DNA of 64,000 bases from Sphingopyxis sp. (GTDB taxonomy: Bacteria > Pseudomonadota > Alphaproteobacteria > Sphingomonadales > Sphingomonadaceae): positions 2,737,066 to 2,801,065 of the forward strand of contig NZ_CP051527.1 of the NCBI RefSeq assembly GCF_050916055.1, in the 5' to 3' direction. Of this stretch, positions 28,400 through 48,099 are shown in pieces; positions within the stretch are counted from its first letter, which is position 1, and each line of letters begins with the position of its first letter. A program made the position numbers and the translations under genes. The notes below the pieces were generated by a model, which ran no database searches, was not told where the DNA came from, and was given only the letters and a program-made list of their open reading frames with translations.

Positions 28400-30295
28400 T
28401 CAACCGCGCTTGCGCCGCCCGGCGCTCTCGCGAGTTGGCCGCGCGCCCCGCATGCAAACGGGTAGCAACCGGATTTCTACGGCATCTGGCAGATGGGCTG
28501 TCACCTTGGGTATCTGGTTTACAATATCGAACAAGATTTGGAGGCGCGTGGCGCTCGCGTATCGACTCGCATTCTCCCCACCAGTCTTTTGACCGAGGAG
28601 GTCCGACCGAAATTCTTCGAACGTCTGTAGCATCTTCAGTTCAGTGCTAACCATATGCCGGCCGCTGTGGACCGCCTGTCCCGGCTTAACGAGCGTCAGA
28701 CGTTGCTTAATGTGAAGCCATACATTCTTGAAAAAGACATCCCCCAGCGCACGCCCTGTGCGACCGGGCTGAATTTCTGGAAAGAGGTACTGCTCGCCAG
28801 CTTCGTTCATGGCTTGGACATAATGCAGGAAGCCCAAGCGACGCAGCTCGTCGCAAATAGGAATCTTACGGACGCTGGTCGCGTTCTTGACGCCGCCCGC
28901 GGACGTCTTCCTGATGTTGACAAAAAAGATACCGTCTTCTTCGCCGATATCGTCGACCAAAAGCTTACAAGCTTCCTCGCGTCGCATGCCTGAATACCAG
29001 ACCAGCGGCATGACCCAATAGGCTGCGTCGTGCCAAATCGAGCCTCCCGGCGTCACGGACAAACGCTGAGGCAAATCGACGCCCGTACCGCCGGTCCATA
29101 TGCCGAGACGAAACAATTCCTCGCCCTGCGCAATCGTATAGGGGTCGCGCTCGTTGCGCTCGTCCATGTCATCCTCCTCGAGGATGAAATCCGAGAAATC
29201 AAGCGGCGCCATGGGCGTCTTTGTCGCCAGCCACGAGCACAATCTCTTGAGGTTGGCGAAATGGCGGTTGATGGTGCCTACGTCGAGTCCGATCGTGATC
29301 GAAACTTCTTCACCTTGCTCCTCTGCTTCCGCAAGACGATCGAGCGCCTCGCTGCAAATGTCCTCCAATGACATCCCTTCATGACGGGGCGACTTATGAT
29401 GCGACGACGGTAACCGGTTCAACTGGTCGTAAAGCCGGTTGAGGTCTTCTTGGCTTGTTGCTGCCAGGGCCTTGCCATTGTTCGACTTGCCGAAAAGAAA
29501 GGGCGCGGCCTTGAATTGACGCTTCTGGCTGGCACCCCAGACTTTCGGCTGCGATTTGCGCCTTTTGGGGCTCGCACCCTCGTTCAACACCGGCGCGTCG
29601 TCCCGTCCACGGGCCTTTGGTTTCAGCTCCATATATTTTTCTACCGCCTGCATCGGGCTAAGGTCGGCATAATAGTTCTGCGAATCGCTGAATGTCGACG
29701 CTGGCGCAGGCACAATGGTGCTGGCGGTCCACGCGTTTGGAGGCGCGGGGGCGGAGATCGGGGGAGGCATCGAAGTCTGGGGAGGCGCTCGCCCGAGCGC
29801 GTTCATGAGCGCCAAGCTGTGTTCGATGGCGCGAACTTCGGGGCTGTCGTAGGTTGCCGCGGCCGTCAACCGTGCCCCACACATGATCTGCCGGGCAATT
29901 TCGATGCGGTCAGCCGCTGGCTCGATGTCGAGCCGCTCCAGCAATGCCTTTGCCTCATTCAGCAAATTGCCTGGAACATCGCCGGCTTGGGAAAGCATTG
30001 CATAAAGATTGGCACGGGCCTCGTCGTCCAGCGACGGAAAGCGCTTGTCGAATGACCCGATGTAATCGATGCCCATATAGTCGTCGAAGCCATTTGCGAT
30101 GAAATCGCCGTTAAACGCTGCATAGATCGAGAGCATCTGGTGGAAGCGAGCCGTGACATTGCCCTCACCGTCCTTCTCGATCACCGCCAACTGATGCGCC
30201 AGCATGTTGCGATACCGCACCATCTCCTCTCGAAAGAGATGGTTTACCTGCTCGCTGGTCAGTCCTTCCTGCTCGATCCGTTCGTATAAGCTCAT
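28400..30295 (-). CDS. Large tyrosine recombinase/integrase, possibly N-terminally truncated
   Basis: [20 protein letters not shown] catalytic set. The upstream frame runs into IS21 sequence at ~30319. Confidence 0.82.
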
Positions 30296-30318
30296 TCGCA
30301 CAACCTCGCTTCGGCTGG

Positions 30319-30813
30319 TTGGTGACACGCCTCGAAGAGGAGACCCGGATCGGCAAGGCCGGGACCCTGGCGGCGCAGCTGTCGCGGCTCGACCTGATCG
30401 TGCTCGACGAGCTTGGATATCTGCCGTTCGCACGCTCGGGAGGGCAGTTGCTGTTCCACCTCATCAGCAAGCTTTATGAGCGCACCAGCGTCATCATCAC
30501 CACGAACCTCGCGTTCGGCGAGTGGCCCACCGTCTTCGGCGATCCCAAGATGACCACGGCGCTGCTCGACCGCGTCACCCACCACTGCGATATCGTCGAG
30601 ACGGGCAACGATAGCTGGCGCTTCAAAAACCGCAGCTGACCGCCACCTTCGCCGCCTTCAAAAATCTATCTTGCGCTGCGTGCGCCTCCGGGCGGGCTAC
30701 GCCCGCCCTCCGCCGCACGCAGCGCAAGGCTCACCTCGACAAACCCCTATCATATCCGCAAGGGGGTCCTTCTTCGACGCCGATCGGGGGTCCCGTTTGA
30801 ACGCCGTTTGACA
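30319..30813 (+). mobile_element. istB: IS21-family remnant: 3' part of istB plus right end
   Basis: [14 protein letters not shown]...[13 protein letters not shown]...[10 protein letters not shown] (30319-30639). Tandem terminal repeats at 30762-30813 ending ...TTTGACA. Confidence 0.92.
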
Positions 30814-30949: not shown

Positions 30950-32014
30950 ATGACGCAACCGAAGCGCGAGCGCCTGTCGTTCCTCGACCGCTTTCTGACC
31001 TTGTGGATCTTCCTCGCGATGGCGCTGGGCGTCCTGCTCGGCTCGACCTTCGCCGGGCTCCCCGCCGCGATCGACAGCCTCTCCTGGGGTTCGACCAACA
31101 TCCCGATCGCGATCGGCCTCATCCTGATGATGTATCCGCCGCTCGCGCGCGTCCGCTATGAAGAACTGCCGCGGGTGTTCGAGGACAAGCGCGTCCTTGC
31201 GATCTCGCTGATCCAGAACTGGATCATCGGCCCGGTGCTGATGTTCGCGCTCGCGGTGATCTTCCTGTCCGACAAACCCGAATATATGACCGGCCTGATC
31301 CTCATCGGCCTCGCGCGCTGCATCGCGATGGTGATCGTCTGGAACCAGCTTGCGAAGGGCGACAATCAATATGTCGCCGCGCTCGTCGCCTTCAACTCGA
31401 TCTTTCAGATTCTTTTCTTCAGCGTCTATGCCTGGTTTTTCCTGACCGTGCTGCCGCCACTCTTCGGGCTCGAAGGCAGCGTGATCGACGTCAGCTTCTG
31501 GACCGTCGCCGAAGCGGTGCTCATCTATCTCGGCATCCCTTTCTTGGCAGGCTTCCTCACCCGCAAGTTGCTCGCCGGCGCCAAGGGCAACGACTGGTAT
31601 GAGACTCGCTTCCTGCCGAAGATCGCGCCAATCACCCTCGTCGCGCTGCTCTTCACGATCGTCGCGATGTTCAGCCTCAAGGGGAGCGAGATCGTGACCA
31701 TTCCGGGCGACGTCGTGCGGATCGCGATCCCGCTCACCATCTATTTCGTCGTGCAGTTCGTCATCAGCTTCTGGATGGGCAAGCTCATCGAAGCCGATTA
31801 TCCGCGCACGACGGCGGTCGCCTTCACCGCGGCGGGCAATAATTTCGAACTGGCGATCGCCGTCGCGATTGCCGCCTTCGGCCTTGCCTCGCCGGTCGCT
31901 TTCGCAGCGGTCATTGGCCCGCTCGTCGAGGTGCCGGTGCTGATCCTGCTGGTGAGCGTCGTCTTCTGGTTCGGACGCCGCTGGTTTCCGGCCTCCACCC
32001 CCGCGAAAGACTGA
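30950..32014 (+). CDS. acr3: ACR3-family arsenite efflux transporter
   Basis: [51 protein letters not shown]. Confidence 0.96.
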
Positions 32015-32019
32015 TCAAC

Positions 32020-32775
32020 ATGTCCGCCATGACTTTCTCCCGGTTGCGCGCACTCGCCGACCCCGATCATCTTCCGGCGCTGAGCCCCCAATATATACGG
32101 TCGCAGCCCGGCCTCGGGCTTGGCCCGCTCGATCCGGCGCCGCGCATCCTGCTGCTCTACGGATCCTTACGCGAACGCTCCTATTCGCGGCTCGTCGTCG
32201 AGGAGACCGCACGCCTGCTCCAGCTGTTCGGCTGCGAAATGCGCGTCTTCGATCCCTCCGACCTGCCACTTCCCGACCTGATCGTCGACGACGATCATCC
32301 GGCGGTCGAGGAACTGCGCCAGCATTCGCTCTGGTCCGAAGGCCAGGTGTGGTGCAGCCCGGAGCGCCACGGCCAGATCACCGGCATCATGAGGGCGCAG
32401 GTCGATCACCTGCCGCTCGCCTACAAGGGGCTTCGCCCGACGCAGGGACGGACGCTCGCGGTGATGCAGGTGTCGGCGGGATCGCAGTCGTTCAACAGCG
32501 TCAACACGCTGCGCCTTCTCGGCCGCTGGATGCGAATGATCACGATCCCCAACCAGTCGAGCGTCGCGAAGGCCTATGCCGAGTTCGATGAAGCGGGCCG
32601 CATGCTTCCGTCGAGCTATTACGACCGCATCGTCGATGTTGCCGAGGAGCTGGTCCGGTTCACGGTGCTGACGCGCGGCCATGCCGACCAGCTTGTCGAT
32701 CGCTATTCGGAGCGCAAGGACCGCAACGAGCCTGTCATCACGCCGGCCGAGATGGCGGGTTTACCGGGGACATGA
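32020..32775 (+). CDS. arsH: Arsenical resistance flavoprotein
   Basis: [32 protein letters not shown]...PNQSSV, DRYSER. Confidence 0.96.
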
Positions 32776-32824
32776 TATTTTTTCCTTCGCCCGTTCAGCC
32801 GCTTGGAATTTCCCCGCACCAACC

Positions 32825-32834
32825 TGTATAGACG
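32825..32834. promoter_or_regulatory. Imperfect HutC-type box upstream of the hutC-like gene
   Basis: TGTATAGACG, 5 bp before the likely start codon. Confidence 0.4.
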
Positions 32835-32838
32835 GGTT

Positions 32839-33639
32839 ATGGATTTCAGCCCTCGCACAGCCGGAAGCGGTTCAAACAACTCAAAAGGTTCAGCCGGTTC
32901 CCGGCCAGGCGAAGCAGAGGTCAAGGACAGCCGCGCAGCGCCACGCTATGCGGCAATCAAGCAAAGCATTTGCGATGCCGTTCGGGACGGCCACTTGAAG
33001 CCTGGCGACCGTGTTCCTTCGGAAGCTGAACTGGTGCAGCAGTTCGACGTATCGCGCATGACCGCGAACCGAGCCCTCCGCGAGCTGCAGGCCGCGGGCA
33101 TATTGGTCCGCCGCGCCGGTAGCGGGTCGTTCATTGCGGAGCCGAAACCGATCGGCCAGATCATCGAAATCCGCAATATTGCGGAAGAAATACGCGAGCG
33201 CGGTCATGTTTATCGTGCCCGTGTCGTGCAGAATGACGAGATCCGGGCCAATGCCGAAATGGCTGCGCTTCTGGAAGTCCCGGTGGGGACAAAATTGTTC
33301 CACTCGATCATCGTCCATCACGAAGCGGAATTCCCGATCCAGCTCGAAGAGCGCTTTGTGCTTGCGTCGGCTGCCCCCGACTATGGAAAGATGGACTTCA
33401 CGCAGACGACGCCGAACGAATATCTGACACAAACCGCGCCGCTCGAACGGGTCGAGCACCGCATCCGCGCTGAGATGCCCGACGCGCGAACGCACGGCAT
33501 GCTTGGGCTGTCGGATGCCGAGCCGGTGCTGCGGATGACGCGCCGGACATGGAGCCACTCACGTCTCGTCAGCCACGCATGGCTGACGCATCCCGGCTCG
33601 CGCTTCGAACTCTCGGCCGCCTTCTCGATCGACGATTGA
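32839..33639 (+). CDS. hutC: Histidine utilization repressor-like GntR/UTRA regulator
   Basis: PGDRVPSEAEL...VSRMTANRALREL, GSGSFIA, EIRNIAEEI, IQLEERFV, TPNEYL, EHRI. Confidence 0.85.
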   Translation: MDFSPRTAGSGSNNSKGSAGSRPGEAEVKDSRAAPRYAAIKQSICDAVRDGHLKPGDRVPSEAELVQQFDVSRMTANRALRELQAAGILVRRAGSGSFIAEPKPIGQIIEIRNIAEEIRERGHVYRARVVQNDEIRANAEMAALLEVPVGTKLFHSIIVHHEAEFPIQLEERFVLASAAPDYGKMDFTQTTPNEYLTQTAPLERVEHRIRAEMPDARTHGMLGLSDAEPVLRMTRRTWSHSRLVSHAWLTHPGSRFELSAAFSIDD

Positions 33640-33649
33640 CGACCGATAG

Positions 33650-34384
33650 TCAGGCTGTGCTGCGGGTCACCACAGGCTTGCGGCGCCGGCGCAACCAGCG
33701 GAAATCGGCGCGGCTAAAGCTTTTGAAGAGCAGATAGAAGCCGGTCCCGGAAAGCCACAGCGCGCCGAAGGCCACGAAGATGATCAGCGGGTGATTGAAG
33801 CTCTTCCGGTTCACATAATCCATATTGTGGAGCATCCAGAAAAAGTCCCACGTCCGCCAAGTATCGCCGCGCATCACAAGGAAACGCGCGGTGTCGAGCG
33901 AGACATAGGCGCTGCTGTTCTCGGCGTCGGCAAAGTCGACGCGCCACATCGCACCGTCATGATCGCGCGCCTCGAGATTGGGCTTTGCCAATATGCTGAC
34001 CTTTTGGATCGGCGCCTCGTTCATCATCGACGCGACCTCGCGCGCCATGCCTTCATCGACGCGCATGTCCTTGCCGGTAGTGGCATCGACGAGGCGAGTG
34101 CCCTTCGGCGTGCGAAGCTCATAGACCGGCCGCGCGCCGAGATCGCGCAAGACCACGCCGGTGACAGGCTCGCCGCGCGGCAAGGCGGCAACGTCGAAAT
34201 ATTCGCCGGCGGGCAAAGGATGCGCATGCGACATCCCGCCGCCGTGTCCGCCGACCTTGTCCTTGTCGAGCAGCGCCATGACCGAGCCGCTCAAGGCCCA
34301 GAGGAGGAACTGGAGCCCGAGAATAAGCCCGACCCATTTGTGGATGCGGCGGAAAAAGAGCGGCGTCAGCCGAATGCGTTTCAT
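33650..34384 (-). CDS. PepSY-associated TM-helix domain protein
   Basis: RRIHKWVGLI, WDFFWMLHNMDY, FNHPL; overlaps the upstream stop by 4 nt. Confidence 0.85.
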   Translation of the reverse strand: MKRIRLTPLFFRRIHKWVGLILGLQFLLWALSGSVMALLDKDKVGGHGGGMSHAHPLPAGEYFDVAALPRGEPVTGVVLRDLGARPVYELRTPKGTRLVDATTGKDMRVDEGMAREVASMMNEAPIQKVSILAKPNLEARDHDGAMWRVDFADAENSSAYVSLDTARFLVMRGDTWRTWDFFWMLHNMDYVNRKSFNHPLIIFVAFGALWLSGTGFYLLFKSFSRADFRWLRRRRKPVVTRSTA

Positions 34385-35085
34385 GCCGTCTTCCTCTTGC
34401 GGCGCTTGAAGGACCAGATCAGCAGCCATGCGCCTGTCAGCGCCATGGCGAAGGCGCTCCAGGTCGCGACACGGAGCAGCGGGTTGTTGACGTCGGTCCG
34501 TTCGTCATAGTCCATGATGTGGAGCATCCAGGCGAAGTCGAAAACACGCCACAGCGCGTGGCGGCGCGAGATGAGCTCGCCCGTCTGCGGCGACAGATAA
34601 AGCGTCGGACGGTTCCAGCCTTCGAACTCGACCTGCCAATAGGGCGGCTTGCGCGCTTGCATCTCCTGTGGCGCCTTGGTGAGCAGGCGCACCGACACGA
34701 TCGCGCCGTCGCCGGTGTAGATGCGCCGCGCCTGCGACCGGACCTGGGACTCGGTCAGGGCAGGCAGCGGCGCACCCGAGCGGGCATCGAACAGCTTCGC
34801 GCCGTCGGGCGTCTCAGCGCGCCACACGGGCGACCCGAAGAATCGCTGCAGGCGGATTTCCGAAACCCCGGGTGCGGTGGCCACAATCCGCGACGGCGGC
34901 GCGAGCCCCGCCAGATCGAACGCTTCGGTCGCCGGCGCGCGCACCAGGTTATCGCCGTGGATGATGTCGATATGGACGACGACCATGTAGAGGCCGGTCA
35001 GCGTCCAGAGCAAAGCCTGGACGCCGACCACCAAGGCCAGCCATTTATGCGTTCGCCGAACAAGCAGCGGCCAACGAATTGCCAT
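34381..35085 (-). CDS. PepSY-associated TM-helix domain protein (paralog)
   Basis: RRTHKWLAL, WRVFDFAWMLHIMDY, NNPLL. Confidence 0.85.
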   Translation of the reverse strand: MAIRWPLLVRRTHKWLALVVGVQALLWTLTGLYMVVVHIDIIHGDNLVRAPATEAFDLAGLAPPSRIVATAPGVSEIRLQRFFGSPVWRAETPDGAKLFDARSGAPLPALTESQVRSQARRIYTGDGAIVSVRLLTKAPQEMQARKPPYWQVEFEGWNRPTLYLSPQTGELISRRHALWRVFDFAWMLHIMDYDERTDVNNPLLRVATWSAFAMALTGAWLLIWSFKRRKRKTA

Positions 35086-35095
35086 TGCGCTACCC

Positions 35096-37798
35096 TCAGA
35101 AAGCCGTCCGGAAGCCGACGTAGAATCGCCGTCCGAGCAGATCGTAGGTCATCGTGTCGGTGTTCGCATCGGTAAAGCTCTGGATATAGGGCGCCTTGCG
35201 ATCGAACAGATTGTCGACACCGACCTGGAAGCGGGTCTTGTCGTCGATCTCAAAAGCGACCTGGAGATTGTGATAGAAGACGTTGGGGGTGCTGTAGCCG
35301 ATGTCACCCGGCGCCGCGTTGAAGTCGGTCGCCTTGCCGATCCACTGGGTCGACCAGGTCGCACTGACGCCGTCCTTTTCGGCGGTCAGCACACCATAGC
35401 CGCGCCATTTCGGATAGCCGCCGTTGCCGCCGCCGATGAAGCCGTCGAAATCGATCGGTGCGCCGCCCGGGAAGGGCAGCACGACATATTTGTTGAGGTA
35501 GGTCAGGTTGACGTCGAACGAGACATTCACGCTGCCGATGTTGTTATTATAGACGAGGCCGAGGTCGAGCCCGTTCATTTCCTCGCGGCCGGTGTTGATC
35601 GGCTGGGCGGACAGGAAGGTGACCTCGCCTGTCAGCGGACTGCGCGTAAAATCCTCGCAGAAAGGATGCGACAGATTCTGGCTCGCGTAGCAGATGCCGA
35701 GTTTGGTCGATCCGGGAATGGCGCGGATCGCATCCTTGATCTTGATGTCGAACCAGTCGGCGGTGAGCGACAGGCCCGGGATGAGCCCCTTCGGCGAGAT
35801 CACGGTGCCGACGGTCCAGGTCGTCGAGCTTTCGGGCTTCAGATTCTCGTTGCCGCCCACTGTCGTCAGGATCGTCGTGCCCAGCTGGACATAGTTCGCT
35901 GGCACGCCCGATGCCTGACAATTGGCGATTAGCGTCGCATTGCCACTCGTCGCATAGCGCGAGCACGGATCGGTCGTGGTCAGATTGCCTTCGGACACGC
36001 CGCCGAACAGTTCGGGGACGTTGGGAATTCGGAAGCCGGTGCCATAGGTGCCGCGCAGGCGGAAGCTGTCGTTGATAACCCAGTCGAGGCTCGCCTTATA
36101 GTTCCAGTCGCTGCCGAACAGGTCATAGTCCGAATAGCGCACCGCGCCGCCCGCCGTCAGCGCTTGGAAGAAGGGCGCATCGGCAAGGATCGGCACCGAC
36201 AGTTCGAGATAGGCCTCCTTCGCGGTGCTCGTTCCGGAGATCGGGTCCTGCTGGTTGGTGTTGGCAATACCGAGCACCGTCAGCGGATCGGGATCGCGCC
36301 AGCCCTTTTCCTTGCGATAGACAACACCCGCCGCGAAGGAGACGGGCCCCGCAGGCAGCTTGAACAGATCGCCGTTGAGATCAGCCGTAACCGTCGCTAG
36401 CTCGTTGCCGCCGCGGTCGCGCGAGGTGAAGAGGATATAATCGAGAACCTCGGGCGTCAGATCGCCGAAGCCGAGATAATCGGCGCAGGGAATCGAAGCC
36501 CCGGCCGCCAAGCTACATTTGCTGGTGTCGAGCGTGTTGGCGACGCGCTCGAGATTGGCGATGTTGGTCGACCCATCGACCGCCGTATTGCGGCCGAAGC
36601 TGCCCGCGACTTCCCAGCCCCAGTCGTTCGACAGCTTGCCGCGGAGGCCAAAGGTGCCCTGCCAGGTATCGGTTTCCTGAAAGAACTGGCGCGCACCCGG
36701 TTCGGCGAGGCGCCGCTGGATGAGGACGATATTCTGGCCGGTCGGGTTGGTGGGGTTGCTCGCCGCGATCGACAGGTTGCGCAGCGTGCCGGGCGTCGCG
36801 ATCTGGTTCGACTTGCGGAACGTGTAGAGGAATTCGCCGAACGCCTCGATATTGTCGGTCAGGTCATAGTCGGCGAAGAAGGCGGTGCTGACGCGCTCGA
36901 CGGGGCTGACGGCGTTGAGGAACGGGGCAGAATTGAAATTATGCTTCGCCGCGCTGTAGGGTTCGAAGAAATTTCCGTTGCCGCCGAGCACCTGGTTGAA
37001 GTTGATCTGCTGGCCGTTCGGCAGCACCGCGCGTCCGCCGATCGTCGATGCGCTGTTGACGCAGCCAAGTGTGCCGGGGGTGGTTTCGGCCAGCGAACAG
37101 GGCGCGCGGGTCGCCATGTTTACGGCGCTGGTCTTCTGGTAGGTTACCGCGGCCATGAAACCGCCGCGGTCGTTGCGCATGCCCCAGATCAGGTCTGCGG
37201 TGAAATCCGAGCCATCACCCTTTTCGGTGATCCCCTGCCGCGCGCTGATCCCAAGACCTTCATAGTCGGTCCGGGTGACGAGGTTGACGACGCCCGCCAT
37301 CGCATCGGCGCCATAGATCGCCGACGCGCCGTCCTTGAGGACGTCGGTGCGCGCGAGCGCGACGACCGGGATCATGTTGAGGTCGGGCGACGAGTTCGCG
37401 CCCGTGCCGCCGGCGACGAGGCGGCGGCCGTTGAGCAGCACGAGGGTGCGCTTGATGCCGAGACCACGCAGATTGACCTGCGCGGTGCCGTAGCCGTTGC
37501 CAGTCCAGTAGGCCGAAGTCTGGTTGCCCGCGAAGCCCGCATTGGCGGGGAGGCGCTGCAGCACCGTCTCGATATTCACGACCCCGGTGTTCTCGATCTG
37601 CTCGGCCGAAACGACCGTCGCCGGCCCAACGCCCGCGAGATCCTGCCGGCGGATACGCGACCCGGTCACCACGATATCGCTGCCGCTGCTCGCGCTATCC
37701 GCTCCGGCCTCGGGTGCCGACTCGCTTTGAGCGAGGGCTGGCGCCGAAACGCCCGCAAAAACCGCAGCGCCGGCAAGCAAAACTGTCCTGAACTTCAT
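35096..37798 (-). CDS. TonB-dependent receptor
   Basis: Signal peptide, TonB box DIVVTGSR, plug DVLKDGASAIYGADAMAGVVN, C-terminal NLFD...YVGFRTAF. Confidence 0.96.
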   Translation of the reverse strand: MKFRTVLLAGAAVFAGVSAPALAQSESAPEAGADSASSGSDIVVTGSRIRRQDLAGVGPATVVSAEQIENTGVVNIETVLQRLPANAGFAGNQTSAYWTGNGYGTAQVNLRGLGIKRTLVLLNGRRLVAGGTGANSSPDLNMIPVVALARTDVLKDGASAIYGADAMAGVVNLVTRTDYEGLGISARQGITEKGDGSDFTADLIWGMRNDRGGFMAAVTYQKTSAVNMATRAPCSLAETTPGTLGCVNSASTIGGRAVLPNGQQINFNQVLGGNGNFFEPYSAAKHNFNSAPFLNAVSPVERVSTAFFADYDLTDNIEAFGEFLYTFRKSNQIATPGTLRNLSIAASNPTNPTGQNIVLIQRRLAEPGARQFFQETDTWQGTFGLRGKLSNDWGWEVAGSFGRNTAVDGSTNIANLERVANTLDTSKCSLAAGASIPCADYLGFGDLTPEVLDYILFTSRDRGGNELATVTADLNGDLFKLPAGPVSFAAGVVYRKEKGWRDPDPLTVLGIANTNQQDPISGTSTAKEAYLELSVPILADAPFFQALTAGGAVRYSDYDLFGSDWNYKASLDWVINDSFRLRGTYGTGFRIPNVPELFGGVSEGNLTTTDPCSRYATSGNATLIANCQASGVPANYVQLGTTILTTVGGNENLKPESSTTWTVGTVISPKGLIPGLSLTADWFDIKIKDAIRAIPGSTKLGICYASQNLSHPFCEDFTRSPLTGEVTFLSAQPINTGREEMNGLDLGLVYNNNIGSVNVSFDVNLTYLNKYVVLPFPGGAPIDFDGFIGGGNGGYPKWRGYGVLTAEKDGVSATWSTQWIGKATDFNAAPGDIGYSTPNVFYHNLQVAFEIDDKTRFQVGVDNLFDRKAPYIQSFTDANTDTMTYDLLGRRFYVGFRTAF

Positions 37799-37845
37799 GG
37801 CGAAACCCCCTTCTGGTTGCGTTATGCACCGGAGAGAGCATCAAA

Positions 37846-37855
37846 TGTATATACA
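37846..37855. promoter_or_regulatory. Perfect HutC-type operator TGTA-TA-TACA
   Basis: Palindrome 48 bp upstream of the TonB receptor start. Confidence 0.65.
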
Positions 37856-38007
37856 GGTCAACAGAAAATTGTCTTAAAGATCAATATCTTAGATGAAGAT
37901 ACACGACCCATAGCCGGTGAGTATAATACGCACCCGAAGCATCTACCCCTCACCGGAAAATGACTTTTTTTTGATGTCGCGCCTCGGCGCCCCAAATTGG
38001 CCCCGCC

Positions 38008-38526
38008 CTAAGCGGAAAAGATCGACGCCTTGCCCTGCATGTCGAACGCCATCACATCGAAAGCGTCCTGGCTCCCATCGGGCATTTCCATGCCCGGCGA
38101 GCCCCGCGGCATGCCGGGAACGGCGATCCCCCGGATGTTGCGCGGCTTGTCACGGAGCAGCTTTGCGACATGCGGCATCGGCACATGACCTTCGATCGCA
38201 TAGCCGGCAACGATCGCGGTGTGGCACGACGCCAGGTCGGGCGGAACGCCATAGCGTTCCTTCACTGCGGCCATGTCAGCGCGACTCTCGACAGTCACGT
38301 TATAGCCAGCCTTGCGTGCGATATCGGCCCACGCCTCGCAGCAGCCGCATTCGGGGTCGCGGTAAACGAGCATCGCCTGGCTCCCGCCGCTGCTTGCCGG
38401 CAAAGCGGCCCCCGCCGTATCCGTTCCGGCAGCAGGCCGCCGATCGCATCCAACAAGCGCGGCACCGCCTGCAACGGCGAACAAGCCAAGAAGGCTTCGC
38501 CGGCTGTAATTTGAGGTCGGCGTCAT
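38008..38526 (-). CDS. DUF411 metal-binding protein (CopG-like)
   Basis: SRRSLL leader with VGC, CGCCEAW, ASCHTA, IEGHVP, GIAVPGMP.GSPGME. Confidence 0.88.
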   Translation of the reverse strand: MTPTSNYSRRSLLGLFAVAGGAALVGCDRRPAAGTDTAGAALPASSGGSQAMLVYRDPECGCCEAWADIARKAGYNVTVESRADMAAVKERYGVPPDLASCHTAIVAGYAIEGHVPMPHVAKLLRDKPRNIRGIAVPGMPRGSPGMEMPDGSQDAFDVMAFDMQGKASIFSA

Positions 38527-38966
38527 TTTCGGTCCAATATTCGCTTCATCTGGTCGATCTCTGCCTTTTGGCCCGCAATGATGCCGCGGCACAATTCAAG
38601 CACCTCGGGGTCCGAGAGGCGGGCTTGCGCGCACATGAGGACAGCGCCCGAATGATGCGGGATCATCGACCGCAGGAAGGCCTGGTCGCCGATCGTGGTC
38701 TGCGTGCGAATGAGCCCGAAGCTGCCAAAGAAGGCGAGCGCCGCTCCGCCCAAAAGGAGGATGTTTCGGCGCTTGTCAGGAAACATGTCGGGCATGGCGA
38801 TGATCATCAGGACGACCATCGGCGCCACCATCATGAGCGTCATATAGGCCATGTTGAGATTGTTGTAGAAGCTCGACAGACGATCAATCATCACGAACAT
38901 GACGAGATACATGATAACGGCGCCGACGAGCGTTTGCCAGGCGAGGCTTCGATAAGCTGACTTCAC
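38523..38966 (-). CDS. DUF305 (CopM-like) protein with TM helices
   Basis: FLRSMIPHHSGAVLMC, II.GQ..EI..M; AGGAGA RBS before GTG. Confidence 0.8.
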   Translation of the reverse strand: MKSAYRSLAWQTLVGAVIMYLVMFVMIDRLSSFYNNLNMAYMTLMMVAPMVVLMIIAMPDMFPDKRRNILLLGGAALAFFGSFGLIRTQTTIGDQAFLRSMIPHHSGAVLMCAQARLSDPEVLELCRGIIAGQKAEIDQMKRILDRK

Positions 38967-38998: not shown

Positions 38999-40201
38999 TT
39001 AGAACCAGACCCGCACCCCTGCGACCAGGCTGACGCTGCTTGGGTCTTCCCCTGCGGCCCGCGTGAAACGGGCCGTATCGCCGACCTTGCGTTCCCATTC
39101 GACTCCGACATAGGGGGCGAATTCCTTGACGATTTCGTAACGCAGGCGCAGCCCGAGCTCCACGTCGGACAAGCCGGACCCGACCCCGATTTCGGGAACA
39201 TCTTGTAACGCGAAATTCAGCTCGGCTATCGGCTGGAGGATCAGTTTCTGGGTGATGCGCTGGTCATAATAGCCTTCAAGCCGGCCGTGCAGATCGCCCT
39301 TGTTCGACAAGAACAGGGCGCCCTCGACCTCGAACCAATAGGGCGCGAGCCCCTCGAAGCCCACTGTCGCATAGGTGCGATCGGGACCGGGTCCGAGATC
39401 CTGCCGAATGCCGGCCTGGGCGTTGAAATAGGGGCCGACGGCACGGCTGTAGAGCAATTGCGTCTCGGTGCCTTCGATGCCCTCGCCAAAAACCCCCTCG
39501 CCTTCGCTTTTGACGGTGAGCCGATTGATATCGCCACCATACCAGGCTTCGCCGTCCCAGCGAAAGCCGTCATGCCCTTTGCGCGCCTGATATTCGGCGA
39601 GGTTGAAACTGATGAAGGCGATTTTCTGCGCGCCATTTTCTTCCATCATCGCATGGCGCGAATGCTCCATTTCGGCCTTGGGATAGATGCGGTCGGCATA
39701 CCAGTCGCTGGGCGGCGCCGGCGCGGCGGCATCGCCCGGAGGCAAGTCGGTGCCGCTCGCCCCGCCCATTCCGGCCATGCCTTCCATCAGTTCCATCGTT
39801 GCGTCCTTCGGCATGCAATGGCCCATCTTGGCATGTTCGGGCGGACAGTCGGGATCGGCCGGGGCCACCGTGCCTTGGTCCATCGCGCCCATGTCCGGCA
39901 TTTCCGCGCTCGAGCCGCTGTCCGAAGACTTTGCCTCGGGCGTGCAATGGCCCATCGCCGCATGCTCGGGCGCGCAACTTGCGTCCTTGGGTTTCATATC
40001 CATGCCGCCATGATCCATCTCGGGCATCGGCGCGGGTTCGGATTGCGGCGGCGGAGCCGGCTGCGGCTTGGCAGCTGGCTTCTTCGGCTCGGCCGGCATG
40101 GTCATGCCCGGCATCGACGAATGATCCATCGACTGCGCGGTGGCGGGAACGGCGAAAGCGAGCGCGGCGGTGCCGGCGAGGAAAAGCGAAGCGCGGGTCA
40201 C
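38999..40201 (-). CDS. copB: Copper resistance protein B
   Basis: Met/His-rich N-terminus, WYGGDINRL, GLAPYWFE, GLRLRYEI..EFAPYVG, C-terminal RVWF. Confidence 0.96.
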   Translation of the reverse strand: MTRASLFLAGTAALAFAVPATAQSMDHSSMPGMTMPAEPKKPAAKPQPAPPPQSEPAPMPEMDHGGMDMKPKDASCAPEHAAMGHCTPEAKSSDSGSSAEMPDMGAMDQGTVAPADPDCPPEHAKMGHCMPKDATMELMEGMAGMGGASGTDLPPGDAAAPAPPSDWYADRIYPKAEMEHSRHAMMEENGAQKIAFISFNLAEYQARKGHDGFRWDGEAWYGGDINRLTVKSEGEGVFGEGIEGTETQLLYSRAVGPYFNAQAGIRQDLGPGPDRTYATVGFEGLAPYWFEVEGALFLSNKGDLHGRLEGYYDQRITQKLILQPIAELNFALQDVPEIGVGSGLSDVELGLRLRYEIVKEFAPYVGVEWERKVGDTARFTRAAGEDPSSVSLVAGVRVWF

Positions 40202-42048
40202 TCTGCGTCTCCCTTCGGACGGACGCTGACGACGCGCATCATCCCGGCGTGCATATGGTAGAGCATATGACAGTGGAACGCCCAGTCACCGAGCGCGTCG
40301 GCGGTGAAATCGAAGCTGGCGGTGCCTCCGGGCTGAACGAGAACCGTATGCTTGCGCGGCGAGCGATCGCCCTTGCCCGTGACCAGTTCGAAGAAATGGC
40401 CATGGAGGTGGATGGGATGGCTCATCATCGAATCGTTGATGAGGTTGATCCGCACCCGCTCACCCTCGATGAAGGGGATCGGCTCATGATGGTCGGACAT
40501 CTTGACGCCATCGAACGACCACATGAACCGCTCCATATTGCCGGTCAGATGAATGTCGAGCGAGCGTTCGGCGGCGCGCACATCGGGATTGCGCTCGAGC
40601 GCCACCAGATCATGATAGGTGAGCACCTTGTGCCCGACATTTTCGAGCCCCTGCCCCGGCTCGCCCATGCGATCGACCGGCATCGGCGAGATGGTCTGGA
40701 CACTCGGGTCGCGTTTGACCTGCGGGGCGACGTCGAAATCGCGCATGCTGTGCTGCATTCCGCCACCCGATCCATGATCCATCCCCGCCATCGCGCCGCC
40801 TTCGGCCGCGGGCGTGCAATGGCCCATCTTGGCATGTTCGGGCGAGCAGGCAGGATCGCTTGCGGGCATTGGCATGGCCCCCGTGGCGCCACCGCCCGAA
40901 TGGTCCATTCCCGCCATGGAACCGCCTGACATGTCCATGTCGCCCATCCCCATGTCCTTCATGGTCGCGAGCGGGCGTTCGCGCAGCGGCGGGACGTCGG
41001 CGGCCATGCCGGCGCGCGGCGCAAGCGTCGCACGCCCCATGCCCGAGCGGTCGTTGGCTTCGGCGACAAGCGTATAGGCGCGGTCCTCGACCGGCGTGAC
41101 AATGACATCGTAAGTTTCCGCAACGGCGATCTGGAACTCGTCGATTTCGGTTGGGACGACGTTGAGCCCGTCGGCCTGCACGACGGTCAGCCTGAGGCCC
41201 GGAATGCGCACGTTGAAGATCGTCATCGCCGAGGCGTTGATGATCCGCAGCCGCACCCGCTCGCCGGGATTGAAGAGCGCGGTCCAATTGTCGCGCGGGC
41301 CATGGCCGTTGACGAGGAAGCTATAGGTCGATCCGTTGACATCGGCGACGTCGGTCGGATCCATGCGCATCTTGCCCCATTCGATGCGTTCCTTCAGTGA
41401 TTGGTCCTTGCCGGCCAGGAGACCGGAAAGCGTCTGTCGCTGCATGTTGAAATGGCCGGGGTTGACCTTCAACTTGCGGAAGATCGCCTCGGGAGACAAT
41501 TGGCTGTGGTCGGACAGGACGACGACATGCTCGCGGTCAAAGCCGATCGGATCGGGACCTGCGGGATCGATGACGATCGGGCCATAATGGCCAAGCTGCT
41601 CCTGCAGTCCCGAATGGCTGTGATACCAATAGGTCCCCGACTGGACGACGGGGAATTCGTAAACGAAGTTTGAGCGCGGCTTGATGCCGGGGAAGCTGAC
41701 GCCCGGGACGCCATCCATCTGGAACGGCAGGATTAGGCCATGCCAATGGATCGAGCTGTCCTCGTCGAGATCGTTGACGACCGTGAGGCGCGCGGTCTGG
41801 CCTTCCTTCAGGCGAACGAGCGGCGCGGGCACCGTCCCGTTGATCCCGATCGCTCGGCTGACCTTGCCGTCGATCCGCATCGTCTGGCGCGCGATACGAA
41901 GGGTGATGTCATTGCCCGACACCGTCGGCAGCGGCGCGACGATGCCTGGCGACACCGATTGGGCCCACGCCGGAAACCAGGGCGCCAGCGCGGCCACTGT
42001 CCCGCCGCCCAATGCACCCGTCACGAAACGACGCCTGTCTATCTGCAT
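40198..42048 (-). CDS. copA: CopA-family multicopper oxidase
   Basis: Tat leader DRRRF; HWHG, YWYHSH, HPIHLHGH, HCHMLYHMHAGM. Confidence 0.97.
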   Translation of the reverse strand: MQIDRRRFVTGALGGGTVAALAPWFPAWAQSVSPGIVAPLPTVSGNDITLRIARQTMRIDGKVSRAIGINGTVPAPLVRLKEGQTARLTVVNDLDEDSSIHWHGLILPFQMDGVPGVSFPGIKPRSNFVYEFPVVQSGTYWYHSHSGLQEQLGHYGPIVIDPAGPDPIGFDREHVVVLSDHSQLSPEAIFRKLKVNPGHFNMQRQTLSGLLAGKDQSLKERIEWGKMRMDPTDVADVNGSTYSFLVNGHGPRDNWTALFNPGERVRLRIINASAMTIFNVRIPGLRLTVVQADGLNVVPTEIDEFQIAVAETYDVIVTPVEDRAYTLVAEANDRSGMGRATLAPRAGMAADVPPLRERPLATMKDMGMGDMDMSGGSMAGMDHSGGGATGAMPMPASDPACSPEHAKMGHCTPAAEGGAMAGMDHGSGGGMQHSMRDFDVAPQVKRDPSVQTISPMPVDRMGEPGQGLENVGHKVLTYHDLVALERNPDVRAAERSLDIHLTGNMERFMWSFDGVKMSDHHEPIPFIEGERVRINLINDSMMSHPIHLHGHFFELVTGKGDRSPRKHTVLVQPGGTASFDFTADALGDWAFHCHMLYHMHAGMMRVVSVRPKGDAE

Positions 42049-42079: not shown

Positions 42080-42108
42080 TCATACGCGGCACGATCGTCC
42101 GCCCCTCA
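42080..42108 (-). promoter_or_regulatory. ECF (CnrH-type) promoter of copAB
   Basis: TGAGGGG-N15-CGTATGA. Confidence 0.8.
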
Positions 42109-42147: not shown

Positions 42148-42732
42148 TTACTCCGCCGCGTGGGTGGTCGTTTCGCCCAGCAGAGCCTTCAATTTCGCAC
42201 GGGCCCGGTGAAGCCGCGTCTCCACGGTCTTTTCGCTGACTTGCAGCAGCTCGGCGGTTTCCGACTGGCTTAGATCCTCAACGCCGCGAAGGATGAGGAC
42301 CTCGCGCAGATTGGGCGCTAGGCGGGACATGGCGGCGCGAACGCGCTCGAGTTCGGTGCGGTCTGCCGCCTCGGCGTCGGGCCCGGGGCCTTCACTCGCG
42401 ACATCGTGCGCGCTTTCGAGGGGCAGGGCGCGAGAGAAAAAAGACCGAACCGCACGCCGCCGCGCCCAGTCGCGGCATTTGTTGAGCGCGATACGGGATA
42501 TCCAGACCTGGAAGGGCCGGTCGGCGTCATAGCGGCCAAGCGCCCCAAAGCCCGCAACAAAGCTTTCCTGCGTCAGGTCCATCGCCTCGTCGGGATCGCC
42601 GATATTGTTGCGAATCAGGCGAAACACGGGCGCCTTGTAGCGACTGAGAAATTCCCGATAGGCCTGCTGCTGTCCGGCCCGGGCAAGTGCGGCGAGCTCG
42701 CGATCGCTACATTGCGCGAGATCGAGGCTCAC
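42148..42732 (-). CDS. ECF sigma factor, CnrH/NccH-like
   Basis: DLTQESF, WISRIALNKCRDWARRRAVR, TVETRLHRAR; third gene of a Y-X-H-like triad. Confidence 0.9.
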   Translation of the reverse strand: MSLDLAQCSDRELAALARAGQQQAYREFLSRYKAPVFRLIRNNIGDPDEAMDLTQESFVAGFGALGRYDADRPFQVWISRIALNKCRDWARRRAVRSFFSRALPLESAHDVASEGPGPDAEAADRTELERVRAAMSRLAPNLREVLILRGVEDLSQSETAELLQVSEKTVETRLHRARAKLKALLGETTTHAAE

Positions 42733-43172
42733 CGCGCATCGGCGGTCAGCGCCTTGACCACGCTCTTGTCGAACATCGCGGCCTGGTCGCGATCAAGAAC
42801 GACGCGCATCGCGAACAGATGCTGGAGCGTTTCCTTCTGCAATTCGCCCATCACGCGGTGGGTCTCGTCGATCGCCTCGGTGACGCGGGGTCCATAGCCA
42901 TGCTCGGCTTCGATCGCCTGCGCGAGCCGGATATTGGCGGCGCGCATATCGAGCTCGAGCGCATCGCGCCGCTCGGCGAATTTCGCCTCGATCCGGTCGA
43001 TCTTTACCTGCTGCGCGGACGAGAGCTTCAGCTCGCGATGCAGCAAAGCGTGCAATTCGGTCTCGCTTGCGCGCGGTGTCTCGACGATGAGCCGCCCGGC
43101 GAGCACGCCGGCGAGCGCGGCGATGAAAGCGACCAGACCGAAAAGCAGCAAACGGCGCGACGACGTCATCAA
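42729..43172 (-). CDS. Periplasmic heavy-metal sensor, CnrX/NccX-like
   Basis: One TM anchor; LHALLH, E at +17, QHLFAM (H at +56 from that E, M at +4): same spacing as the CnrX metal ligands. Confidence 0.88.
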   Translation of the reverse strand: MMTSSRRLLLFGLVAFIAALAGVLAGRLIVETPRASETELHALLHRELKLSSAQQVKIDRIEAKFAERRDALELDMRAANIRLAQAIEAEHGYGPRVTEAIDETHRVMGELQKETLQHLFAMRVVLDRDQAAMFDKSVVKALTADAR

Positions 43173-43432
43173 CGCGAATCCAGGAGGGTCGAGGGGGCCA
43201 GCGGGCTGGCCGGAATGAGCGGCGTGATCGGGCTCGCGGCCACGGCCGGCGGAACGATGGCGCTGCCGACGAAGAACCCGCCGCCGAGCGACACGAAAGC
43301 GGCGAGCGCCATCATGCGCCGCATCGCCGACGCCTCGCGGAGCCGTGCCGACAGCGCGACGAGGACACGCTCGTCGAGCGTGTCCAGTGCGCTCGGCACC
43401 TTCGGTTCATTCAAAATCCGGAGTTCGTCCAT
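43169..43432 (-). CDS. CnrY/NccY-like anti-sigma factor
   Basis: 87 aa, single TM helix, C-terminal PLAPSTLL; first gene of the triad. Confidence 0.75.
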   Translation of the reverse strand: MDELRILNEPKVPSALDTLDERVLVALSARLREASAMRRMMALAAFVSLGGGFFVGSAIVPPAVAASPITPLIPASPLAPSTLLDSR

Positions 43433-43460
43433 CGGCCTTTCCTGCCAGTCCATCCATAGA

Positions 43461-43489
43461 TCATACGCGCATGATCCCATCACCCCTCA
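43461..43489 (-). promoter_or_regulatory. ECF promoter of the cnrYXH-like operon (autoregulation)
   Basis: TGAGGGG-N15-CGTATGA, both boxes identical to those of the copA promoter. Confidence 0.8.
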
Positions 43490-43520: not shown

Positions 43521-43549
43521 TGAGGGCCGCGCGGCTGGTTTGCGTATTA
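43521..43549 (+). promoter_or_regulatory. ECF promoter of copCD
   Basis: TGAGGGC-N15-CGTATTA. Confidence 0.75.
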
Positions 43550-45640: not shown

Positions 45641-45669
45641 CGAGGGCCTGGCCTGCTGGCTGCGTATCA
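45641..45669 (+). promoter_or_regulatory. ECF promoter of the Cu-ATPase
   Basis: CGAGGGC-N15-CGTATCA. Confidence 0.72.
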
Positions 45670-45777: not shown

Positions 45778-48099
45778 ATGCAGGAAGATCATCACGCGGC
45801 GGTCGAGGATAACGCAACGGTCGATCCGGTTTGCGGCATGACGGTGGATCCCGCAACAACGTCGCATCGCGCGACCCATGCGGGCTTGGACCATTATTTC
45901 TGCAGTGCGGGCTGCCTTGCCAAATTCGAGGCCGACCCCGAGCGCTACGCGGCAACGCGGGAAGCGGCACCGGCGATTGCCGCCGAGGGCGCGATCTGGA
46001 CCTGCCCGATGCACCCGGAGATCCGGCGCTCCGGCCCCGGAAGCTGCCCGATCTGCGGCATGGCGCTCGAACGCGTCATGCCCGAAGCGGTCGCGGGGCC
46101 GAGCGAAGAATATCGCGACATGCGACGTCGTTTCTGGATCGGGCTCCTGCTCGCCCTTCCGGTGCTCGCGCTCGAGATGGGCGGCCATCTGACCGGCCTT
46201 CATCAATATGTAGACCGCTCGACGAGCAACTGGATTCAGATGTTGCTCGCGACGCCCGTCGTTCTGTGGGCGGGCTGGCCCTTCTTCGAGCGGGCATGGC
46301 TCTCGGTCCGAAACAAGAGCCTCAACATGTTCACCCTCATCGCGATGGGGACGGGCGTCGCCTGGGCCTACAGCATGGTCGCGGCCCTCCTGCCCGGGAT
46401 ATTCCCCGGTGCGTTTCGCGCCGCCGACGGTTCGGTCGCGGTCTATTTCGAAGCGGCAGCCGTTATCACGGTGCTTGTCCTGCTGGGACAGGTGCTCGAG
46501 CTCAGGGCGCGCGAGACGACAAGCGGCGCAATCCGCGCACTTCTCGACTTGACGCCCAAGCTTGCGAGGCGGGTGCGCGGCGACGGGAGCGACGAGGAAG
46601 TCGCACTTGAGGATGTCGCGGTCGGTGATGTGCTGCGCATCCGTCCGGGCGAGAAGGTCCCGGTCGACGGCATCGTGGTCGAAGGCCGCGGCACGGTCGA
46701 TGAGTCGCTGGTCACGGGCGAATCGATGCCCGTCACAAAGGAGGCCGGCGCCGCGCTGATCGGGGGAACGATCAATCAGACGGGCGGGCTGCTGATGCGC
46801 AGCGAGAAGGTCGGCCGCGACACGATGCTCGCCCGCATCGTGCAAATGGTTGCCGACGCGCAGCGCAGCCGGGCGCCGATCCAGCGCCTCGCCGACACCG
46901 TTTCTGGCTGGTTCGTTCCCGGCGTCATCGCCGTTGCTGTTGCTGCGTTTATCGTCTGGTCGATTCTCGGACCGGCGCCCGCGATGGCCTATGGCCTGAT
47001 TGCGGCCGTCTCGGTGCTGATCATCGCCTGTCCCTGTGCGCTCGGCCTCGCAACGCCGATGTCGATCATGGTTGGCGTCGGACGCGGCGCCGAAGCCGGG
47101 GTGCTGATCAAGAATGCCGAAGCGCTCGAACGAATGGAAAAGGTCGATACGCTCGTCGTCGACAAGACGGGGACCCTTACCGAGGGCAAGCCCTCGGTCG
47201 TTGCCATCGAAGTCGCAGATGGGTTCGACGAAAATGACCTGCTCGCGATCGCAGCCAGCCTCGAGCGCAGCAGCGAGCATCCTCTTGCGCTCGCGATCGT
47301 CAAGGCGGCCGAGGAGCGGGGTCTCGCGCTCGTCGAGCCTTCAGGGGTCGATCAGCCGGTGGGCAAAGGGATCGTCGGCTCGGTCGAAGAGAAGGCGATT
47401 GTCCTCGGCAATGCTGCCTTTCTTGAAGAATATGACGTTGACCTCGCGGGGCTTGCCGCGGCGGCCGACCGTCTTCGCGCCGAGGGCGCGACCGCGATCT
47501 ATATCGCCGTCAACGGCCAAGCGGCCGGCGTCATCGCGATTGCCGATCCCGTCAAGGCAACGACAAGCGAAGCCCTCTCTGCCCTGCGCGACGCGGGCAT
47601 AAGGGTCATCATGCTGACCGGCGACAATCGCGTCACCGCCGAGGCGATCGCGCGGCGCCTCGGTATTGCCGACGTCGAGGCCGATGTCCTGCCGGACCAG
47701 AAGAGCGCCGTCGTCCAGCGGCTCCGCGCAGAAGGCCGGATCGTCGCCATGGCGGGGGACGGGGTCAACGACGCGCCCGCGCTCGCCGCCGCCGATGTCG
47801 GCATTGCGATGGGCTCGGGAACCGACGTCGCGATCGAAAGCGCGGGCGTCACCTTGCTGCGCGGCGATCTTCTCGGCATCGTTCGGGCGCGGCACCTCAG
47901 CCATGCGACGATGTCGAATATCCGGCAGAACCTCTTCTTTGCCTTCGCCTATAATGTTGCGGGCATCCCGATCGCAGCGGGCGCGCTCTACCCGCTGTTC
48001 GGACTTCTTCTATCGCCGATCATCGCCGCTGCCGCGATGGCGCTCTCCTCGGTCAGCGTCATCGCCAATTCGCTGCGGCTGCGATTCGTGAAAATCTGA
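45778..48099 (+). CDS. P1B-type copper-translocating ATPase with YHS and TCPMHP domains
   Basis: DPVCGM...YFCSAGC, WTCPMHP, CPICGM, TGES, CPC, DKTGT, GDGVND, YN and MALSS. Confidence 0.96.

Follow-up and report, generated by a model that had tools for sequence, protein, structure and literature searches.

The 64-kb window of Sphingopyxis sp. DNA analyzed here (the whole stretch of 64,000 nucleotides, numbered from its first letter) contains a three-gene operon, encoding a TonB-dependent receptor (TBDR) and two half-size PepSY_TM proteins, that converges with a gene for a HutC-family repressor (32839-37798). We propose that this module pairs a receptor with a di-heme cupric reductase, both acting on a Cu(II)-histidine-type chelate, and that its expression is repressed by HutC and raised by a copper-responsive sigma factor, a reading built on sequence comparison to which we assign a probability of roughly 0.5. 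Our starting point was an original prediction made from the DNA letters alone, and all elements were found where it had placed them.

Locus layout and the PepSY pair

The receptor (35096-37798, minus strand) is a 900-aa protein with a plug and a barrel, a signal peptide, and a TonB box (DIVVTG), and it lacks an N-terminal signaling extension. When it was compared with the PDB using phmmer (E ≤ 10), it gave plug-level matches to BtuB, CirA, PirA, FepA, and FecA, and one weak barrel-region match to BtuB1. The two PepSY proteins, each with two transmembrane (TM) helices, are encoded on the same strand by PepSY-A (34381-35085, 234 aa) and PepSY-B (33650-34384, 244 aa). The stop codon of PepSY-A and the start codon of PepSY-B overlap as ATGA, which indicates translational coupling. 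The hutC-like gene (32839-33639, plus strand) encodes a 266-aa GntR/UTRA repressor of the canonical HutC clade (type 1). Its stop codon and that of PepSY-B are 10 nt apart (33637-33652), with no terminator hairpin between them, and convergent transcription at this point could give antisense overlap or let the regulator gene and its target operon interfere with each other.

For the comparative analysis, loci were gathered with a scan for the motif WMLHIMD, taking one genome per species and the best 80 of at least 599 matches; adding plasmid and contig look-ups brought the total to ~90 loci. Separately, 1,400 relatives of PepSY-A, of which 150 representatives were listed, were retrieved from 1.8 billion cluster representatives. 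Both window PepSY proteins carry the HKW and WMLHxMDY motifs that the original prediction had pointed out. Four His residues, H13 and H189 in PepSY-A and H15 and H186 in PepSY-B, are invariant in 75-77 orthologues. Each half is predicted to present one of them at the start of TM1, on the cytoplasmic side, and the other in the WMLHxMDY helix that precedes TM2, on the periplasmic side. A heterodimer would consequently have two such residues at each membrane face, which is the arrangement described for FoxB and modeled for CrpH (PMC13038864). An AlphaFold2 model of PepSY-A (pLDDT 76) consists of TM1, a β-rich periplasmic domain, an amphipathic helix, and TM2.

Fusions among the relatives reveal how the two proteins belong together. 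P0241 is a natural A-B fusion, its residues 5-230 matching PepSY-A at 58% and its residues 239-473 matching PepSY-B at 54%, and two matched stretches in a protein of ~470 aa are also seen in many of the 150 representatives listed. Four TM helices in one chain are not found in the window proteins, and this number is reached only by the A+B pair or in P0241. On the PepSY_TM family PF03929 (cut-off 28.8 bits), fused relatives score 44-72 bits, and the window PepSY-B and PepSY-A score a marginal 29.5 and 31.5 bits, respectively. Some relatives have C-terminal Fer2 (2Fe-2S), FAD_binding_6, and NAD_binding_1 domains. This reductase tail is joined to the PepSY-B half in Xanthomonas, Massilia, Indioceanicola, and Glaciecola, and the fusion gene adjoins a receptor gene in the first three genera and occurs without one in Glaciecola. 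As judged by this split/fusion relationship, PepSY-A and PepSY-B are evidently halves of one unit. Because A-B fusions and reductase-tailed relatives both exist, there is strong "Rosetta-stone" evidence that the pair would form a transmembrane conduit of four helices, through which electrons from cytoplasmic NAD(P)H would pass. The relatives fused to Fer2/FAD/NAD reductase domains thus lend comparative support to the uptake-plus-reduction role that had been predicted.

PepSY-B displays, just outside TM1, a His/Met-rich periplasmic loop, GGHGGGMSHAHP (VGGHGGGMSHAHPLP), spanning residues 44-57. The loop occurs in receptor-linked PepSY-B of sphingomonads and Xanthomonas and is missing from most receptor-less and Caulobacterales versions; it is a suggestive candidate for a copper-binding site.

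Two loci show other arrangements of the PepSY genes. In Brevundimonas diminuta (L072, 2755-6027 and 12293-13576), a gene for a ferredoxin-reductase-type flavoprotein, a possible separate electron donor to the PepSY pair, directly follows hutC, and the module is also flanked by a divergent gene for a large PD40/amidohydrolase protein. On a plasmid of Sphingomonas sp. FARSPH (L093, 3032-7717), copA, copB, and a cytochrome c gene are followed by a single half-size PepSY gene, without a second half, a receptor, or HutC, which hints at a homodimer that may receive its electrons from a periplasmic cytochrome.

Copper and histidine genes around the module

Synteny was counted over 68 species-level loci with adequate flanks, 51 with the receptor and 17 without, and cop or hut linkage was scored within 10 kb of the module. 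The receptor is adjoined by a HutC-family gene in 46 of the 51 loci that have it, while copA/copB lie nearby in 23 and hut enzyme genes in 6. Receptor-less loci are cop-linked in 13 of 17 cases, often as copA-copB-PepA-PepB, an arrangement that is almost or fully gapless in some loci, and have a HutC gene in only three. Across these loci, then, HutC control goes with the receptor and copper linkage with the reductase. Checking synteny with cop genes had been suggested with the original prediction, and the metal link that it proposed is upheld and narrowed to copper both by these counts and by a promoter motif common to the cop operons (see below). Nickel, which it had also named, found no support, since the association is with cop genes. 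We likewise discarded zinc and iron readings; no recurrent cnr, czc, nik, or siderophore linkage was seen, and the partners are cop and cus genes.

The module also keeps company with histidine catabolism. It lies beside hutU/hutH/hutF in six loci (L028, L034, L035, L037, L057, and L091), and one metagenome-assembled genome has a cop-linked copy (L014) as well as a hut-linked one (L037). A single strand of Indioceanicola (Rhodospirillales) reads TBDR-PepA-PepB::reductase-hutC-hutF-hutU-hutH. On the copper-resistance plasmid pLH3.1 of Xanthomonas perforans (L007, 4017-14904), hutC-hutU-hutH-hutG runs divergently from the genes for the receptor and the PepSY proteins, and the whole set is within a cop island. 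The Massilia locus is ordered copA-copB-TBDR-PepA-PepB::reductase and has a HutC box without a hutC gene, and in Glaciecola a Cus-like pump (cusCBA-like) is followed by PepA, PepB::reductase, copC, and copD. The idea that HutC had been repurposed is not supported as it was worded, in view of the six hut-linked loci and L007, in which the same operon sits next to hut genes. The module instead resembles a regular member of the Hut regulon, one that has additionally been recruited to cop islands.

The module is found on conjugative megaplasmids of sphingomonads and on copper-resistance plasmids of Xanthomonas. A PepSY gene is present on eight Xanthomonas plasmids. In L007, the gene for the PepSY-B::Fer2-FAD-NAD fusion is followed by an ECF sigma/FecR pair and then by a second receptor gene. 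An IncF plasmid of Klebsiella pneumoniae (L008, 1-16696) has a complete hut cluster, made up of hutF, hutC, hutD, an ammonia-lyase gene, an ABC transporter, and hutU, ~4.5 kb from pcoRS; we set this adjacency aside as possibly coincidental, as the plasmid is without receptor or PepSY genes. A hutC homologue occurs on 224 Klebsiella plasmids.

In the window itself, the module is bordered on the hutC side by acr3 (30950-32014) and arsH (32020-32775), and on the receptor side by genes for a DUF411 protein (38008-38592), copB (38999-40201), and copA (40198-42048). Past copA come, in order, an operon for an extracytoplasmic function (ECF) sigma factor, copCD, a methyltransferase gene, and a Cu P-type ATPase gene. 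Histidine catabolism genes are missing, in line with the original prediction: tblastn with HutU, HutH, HutG, and HutF found nothing in the 64 kb, a search that did not include hutI. Just upstream of the ars genes, a 677-aa open reading frame (ORF; 28400-30433, minus strand) has a weak phage-integrase match, which fits a genomic island. A second 900-aa ORF (17339-20041, plus strand) is not a receptor paralogue and encodes a UvrA-like ABC ATPase.

Operators and promoters

As for the regulator, the window HutC scores 69 bits for GntR (PF00392), 106 bits for UTRA (PF07702), and 283 bits on the HutC equivalog model TIGR02018, for which the cut-off is 220 bits. Among solved structures, it is closest to the HutC effector domain 2PKH (E 1e-31). 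It is 42-50% identical to hut-linked HutCs of Xanthomonas, Klebsiella, and Rhizobium, and keeps all columns that are invariant among them. The nearest relatives outside the module (~50%, Rhizobium) adjoin genes for a histidine ammonia-lyase and an ABC transporter. The inducer is presumably urocanate, the first product of histidine breakdown. Two HutC clades, each passing TIGR02018, are employed by the module. In clade 1, the canonical one to which the window protein belongs, the gene is convergent with the receptor operon. Clade 2 is divergent and alphaproteobacterial (~30% identity), and its gene is placed as hutF-hutC-TBDR-PepA-PepB in sphingomonads, whereas in Caulobacterales it lies downstream of PepB.

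The HutC operator of the receptor operon, TGTATATACA (37846-37855, no strand), is a perfect palindrome located 48 nt from the receptor ATG, just where the original prediction had seen it. It is the sole TGTA-N2-TACA sequence in the 64 kb, with 0.03 expected by chance. Nearly all Sphingomonadales and Caulobacterales loci have either this sequence or a version with one mismatch at a near-constant distance from the receptor ATG (~50 nt upstream), and the form TGTATAGACA occurs at the Indioceanicola (Rhodospirillales) and Massilia (Betaproteobacteria) plasmid loci. The operator is thereby kept in ~50 loci from three alphaproteobacterial orders and one betaproteobacterial plasmid, a conservation that speaks for the HutC control originally proposed. 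Boxes of the same type precede hutF in hut-linked loci, and both hutC and hutU in a Klebsiella hut locus; receptor-less copAB-PepAB loci have none. The box directly follows a conserved TTGACC in sphingomonads and directly precedes TTGAC in Caulobacterales, and its placement in either group would suit repressor action.

A degenerate box, TGTATAGACG (32825-32834, plus strand), overlaps the -10 element of hutC and is a candidate autoregulation site. Within it, TGTATAGAC (32825-32833) is 6 nt before the hutC ATG, and the box has ACCTGTATAkAC in common with the receptor operator. The weaker box that had been predicted before hutC is therefore present, and its position is conserved, although it is not significant in the window when taken alone. 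The block TTGGAA-N18-TATAGAC-GGGTnATG is kept before type-1 hutC genes even though their upstream neighbors differ. Autoregulation of hutC is thus plausible, with the conservation of the box inseparable from that of the -10 element. The putative hutC promoter (32803-32832, plus strand) comprises TTGGAA (32803-32808), an 18-nt spacer, and TATAGA (32827-32832). Since the ATG is 6 nt past the -10 element, the transcript may be leaderless.

The receptor operon appears to have two promoters. The TTGACC that abuts the operator (37856-37861, minus strand) is the putative -35 element of a proximal, housekeeping-type promoter, in which case the operator would lie within the spacer. TTGACCTGTATATACA-nTTGATGCT is kept in sphingomonad loci, and we infer the proximal promoter from the conserved TTGACC and the downstream GATGCT. 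Further upstream lies a distal ECF-type motif, TGAGGGGT-N-GCGTAT (37926-37952, minus strand), the -10 element of which ends ~70 nt before the HutC box. The same pattern is found before copA (42082-42107, minus strand, 34 nt before the ATG), before the small-ORF/Metal_resist/ECF sigma operon (43463-43488, minus strand), where it may serve autoregulation, before copC-copD (43522-43547, plus strand), and before the Cu P-type ATPase gene at 45778-48099 (45642-45667, plus strand). Each of the five sites thus marks the 5' end of a cop-related operon or of the receptor operon. For GAGGG-N14-16-GCGTAT, these five sites in the window compare with 0.11 expected, and none of 100 shuffles reached five. 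The motif precedes the receptor in 48 of 66 scanned loci (three of which had too little upstream sequence to score) and copA in 17 of 32 distinct loci. On the receptor side, its hexamers are constant and its spacer is variable, and it is present also in the hut-linked L028, L035, and L037.

By Pfam, the sigma operon (minus strand) encodes the ECF sigma factor (42148-42732), a periplasmic Metal_resist sensor (42729-43172), and a small membrane ORF (~43170-43434). This is reminiscent of CnrYXH from Cupriavidus (PMC6851896), in which a small membrane protein, a periplasmic Metal_resist sensor, and an ECF sigma factor come in the same order, and one -35/-10 motif fronts both the operon of the sigma factor and its targets. 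The targets differ, being here the cop genes and the receptor-PepSY operon, and the signal is presumably copper rather than Ni/Co. These parallels suggest that the sigma operon of the cop cluster is a copper-sensing version of CnrYXH. As its distal motif is the same as those of the copA, copCD, Cu-ATPase, and sigma operons, the receptor operon would belong to the same copper-stress ECF regulon, and the sigma factor should drive its distal promoter. The HutC box is within the leader of the distal promoter, so bound HutC would block this promoter too.

The leader of the receptor operon has two further features. Between the ECF-type motif and the HutC box is a conserved AT-rich element (37879-37892), which reads TAAG-N4-TTGAnA on the operon strand and GATCAATATCTTAG on the plus strand and is seen in orthologous leaders. 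It is one mismatch away from WATCAANNNNTTR, which we take to be the consensus for integration host factor. We also considered a short upstream ORF of the CruR kind: a 17-codon leader ORF exists in the window and is not conserved in the aligned orthologous leaders.

Proposed function, alternatives, and significance

In the mechanism that we propose, the receptor would bring a small chelate of the Cu(II)-histidine type across the outer membrane, the most likely substrate being Cu(II) bound to histidine or to a closely related imidazole ligand. PepSY-A and PepSY-B would join as a four-helix heterodimer whose histidines, H13 of PepSY-A and H15 of PepSY-B on the cytoplasmic side and H189 of PepSY-A and H186 of PepSY-B on the periplasmic side, would together hold two b-type hemes, like those of the single-chain PepSY_TM reductases. 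The heterodimer would send electrons outward to reduce Cu(II) to Cu(I), freeing the ligand. Cu(I) would be taken over by the Cop proteins encoded nearby, and the freed histidine would go to uptake and catabolism. HutC would sit on its operator beside the proximal promoter and inside the distal leader, leaving when urocanate builds up, and the CnrYXH-like system would sense copper and drive the distal promoter. The operon would then be fully on only during histidine catabolism, and most strongly when copper is high as well. Such a mechanism would account for the coupling of the receptor to HutC, the coupling of the reductase to cop genes, the loci in which both occur, and the copper promoter kept in hut-linked copies. 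More tentatively, histidine would be a natural copper carrier served by a dedicated receptor, a split di-heme reductase, and a copper-sensing ECF promoter read through a HutC roadblock, with near-AND logic between the presence of copper and ongoing histidine catabolism; the reductase would take the imported Cu(II)-histidine apart in the periplasm.

Several observations weigh against this proposal. Neither cop nor hut genes lie within 10 kb in 22 of the 51 receptor loci. The window PepSY proteins barely pass PF03929 and have no cytoplasmic reductase tail. FoxB was not recovered from the PDB, either by Foldseek with the lone PepSY-A half, which is a poor probe, or by sequence searches with PepSY-A alone and with a 32-sequence profile, which gave nothing significant; Foldseek returned weak matches to PepSY-like domains (E ~0.006-0.03), for example those of YpmB and the vibriolysin propeptide. 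In the phmmer search, the receptor matched neither an OprC nor a CrtA chain, the presence of a CrtA entry in the PDB copy being unconfirmed. With regard to control, a scan with the Escherichia coli consensus found no promoter at the proximal site, and the ECF assignment follows from motif logic alone. In RNA-type runs, no more than 6-20% of the sampled words were present, in low-depth contigs from related organisms, and these revealed neither a transcription start nor a growth condition. Finally, importing copper from within a resistance island is counter-intuitive. We can offer a speculative rationale, which is that histidine would be retrieved from its copper complexes, or that copper would be stripped off before uptake across the inner membrane. 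The mechanism fits the finding that Caulobacter, when stressed by copper in peptone medium, represses its entire pathway of histidine degradation, which led the authors of that study to suggest that copper titrates histidine away from its importer (PMC8224329).

We weighed three other explanations. In the first, which we consider unlikely, the module serves Hut-regulon uptake of free histidine or a His-peptide, the PepSY proteins are accessories without metal chemistry, and the adjacency to cop genes reflects hitch-hiking on islands. The HutC boxes fronting both the receptor and hutF, the hut-linked relatives, and a polar-amino-acid ABC transporter upstream of the module in Sphingopyxis bauzanensis are all in keeping with it. 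However, free amino acids normally enter through porins, and a Fer2/FAD/NAD reductase fusion would be purposeless for importing free histidine. Moreover, the PepSY pair accompanies copAB or copCD in alpha-, beta-, and gammaproteobacteria even without receptor or HutC, and the cop-regulon motif is retained before the receptor in the three hut-linked loci named above.

It seems improbable, too, that the module acquires copper for cuproenzymes such as the CopA multicopper oxidase and heme-copper oxidases in the manner of CrtA/CrpH, with histidine only a regulatory cue. A receptor followed by PepSY_TM is indeed the CrtA/CrpH architecture (PMC12914433, PMC13038864), and linkage to cop genes points the same way. 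However, the receptor has no sequence similarity to any solved copper receptor searched, and no conserved CruR-like upstream ORF was found in the leaders read. In addition, its ECF-type motif is common to resistance and efflux genes, which are expected to be induced by copper excess and not by starvation, and the embedded hutU/H/G/F genes would be left unexplained. Reductive uptake of a ferric (or other metal) chelate, for instance Fe(III) with a histidine-derived ligand when copper stress brings on iron starvation, can be largely discounted: although the biochemically characterized PepSY_TM members all reduce ferrisiderophores (PMC13038864), some source annotations read "uncharacterized iron-regulated membrane protein," and a Caulobacter iron receptor is tied to copper resistance (PMC12004943), genes for making siderophores or transporting iron were not seen in the annotated neighborhoods, the recurring partners are CopA, CopB, CopC, CopD, DUF411, and Cus-like pumps, and the conserved cis-elements are the HutC box and the cop-type ECF motif, a Fur/Irr box not having been specifically searched for.

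The module has both likenesses to and differences from known systems. The PepSY_TM proteins known so far are periplasmic reductases that depend on heme, and CrpH has a supporting role in copper use (PMC13038864). In CrtA/CrpH of Bordetella pertussis (PMC12914433, PMC13038864, PMC9426467), a TBDR gene is likewise followed by a PepSY_TM gene in one operon, the heme-type histidines of CrpH are essential, the cargo is proposed to be copper in chelated and not in free form, and a function as cupric reductase has been suggested. In contrast, the receptor here has no detectable relation to the solved copper receptors searched, and the PepSY_TM unit is made by two 2-TM genes. Control is by HutC and an ECF-type promoter instead of a CruR upstream ORF, the surrounding genes are those of copper resistance and histidine catabolism instead of respiratory oxidase assembly, and the module is found mainly in Alphaproteobacteria. 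With the ferrisiderophore reductases FoxB and FpvG, the pair shares PF03929, His residues that are predicted to lie at both membrane faces, a periplasmic PepSY-like domain, and pairing with a TBDR. However, the four TM helices of FoxB are in one chain, whereas the module encodes two half-proteins side by side, no sequence-level match to FoxB in the PDB was obtained for the module proteins, the partners are copper and not iron genes, and some module relatives carry their own Fer2/FAD/NAD electron-input part.

The module is not as novel as the original prediction had it when calling it a strong candidate for an undescribed system. In an in silico study of Caulobacterales and Sphingomonadales, Leyn et al. 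(2016; PMC5343134) predicted a HutC-regulated TonB transporter together with a "hypothetical component" (Caul_2357), possibly for histidine transport, and this is very probably the same receptor and partner. That study covered three genomes and did not recognize the PepSY_TM/reductase nature of the partner, the linkage to copper islands, or the ECF-type promoter. Copper systems composed of a receptor and a PepSY_TM protein (CrtA/CrpH) were in turn published in 2022-2026. Within the open-access literature, we found no description of the split PepSY_TM pair, the reductase-tailed relatives, the dual cop/hut synteny, or the tandem ECF/HutC promoter. Nor did we find there a TonB-dependent uptake system for copper-histidine, or a module that joins the histidine utilization repressor to copper.

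To our knowledge, how copper passes the Gram-negative outer membrane, and in which chemical form, is largely unknown. The first copper system made of a receptor and a PepSY_TM protein was characterized in 2022-2026, and no physiological ligand has been found for it. The module described here points to a candidate ligand, histidine, through its regulator and its repeated joining with hut operons, and it provides a simple two-signal promoter. The split, fused, and reductase-tailed forms of PepSY_TM offer a natural series for studies of electron input into this poorly understood family of reductases. The module may also explain the Caulobacter puzzle, in which copper stress in rich medium turns off histidine catabolism, and its spread on plasmids may influence how well bacteria withstand copper, both in polluted soils and on crops treated with the metal. 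If the more tentative reading is true, copper-histidine would be a new class of substrate for TonB-dependent uptake, amino acid catabolism would be bridged to copper resistance, and a copper-histidine system would be spreading on plasmids, including those of pathogens of copper-sprayed crops.

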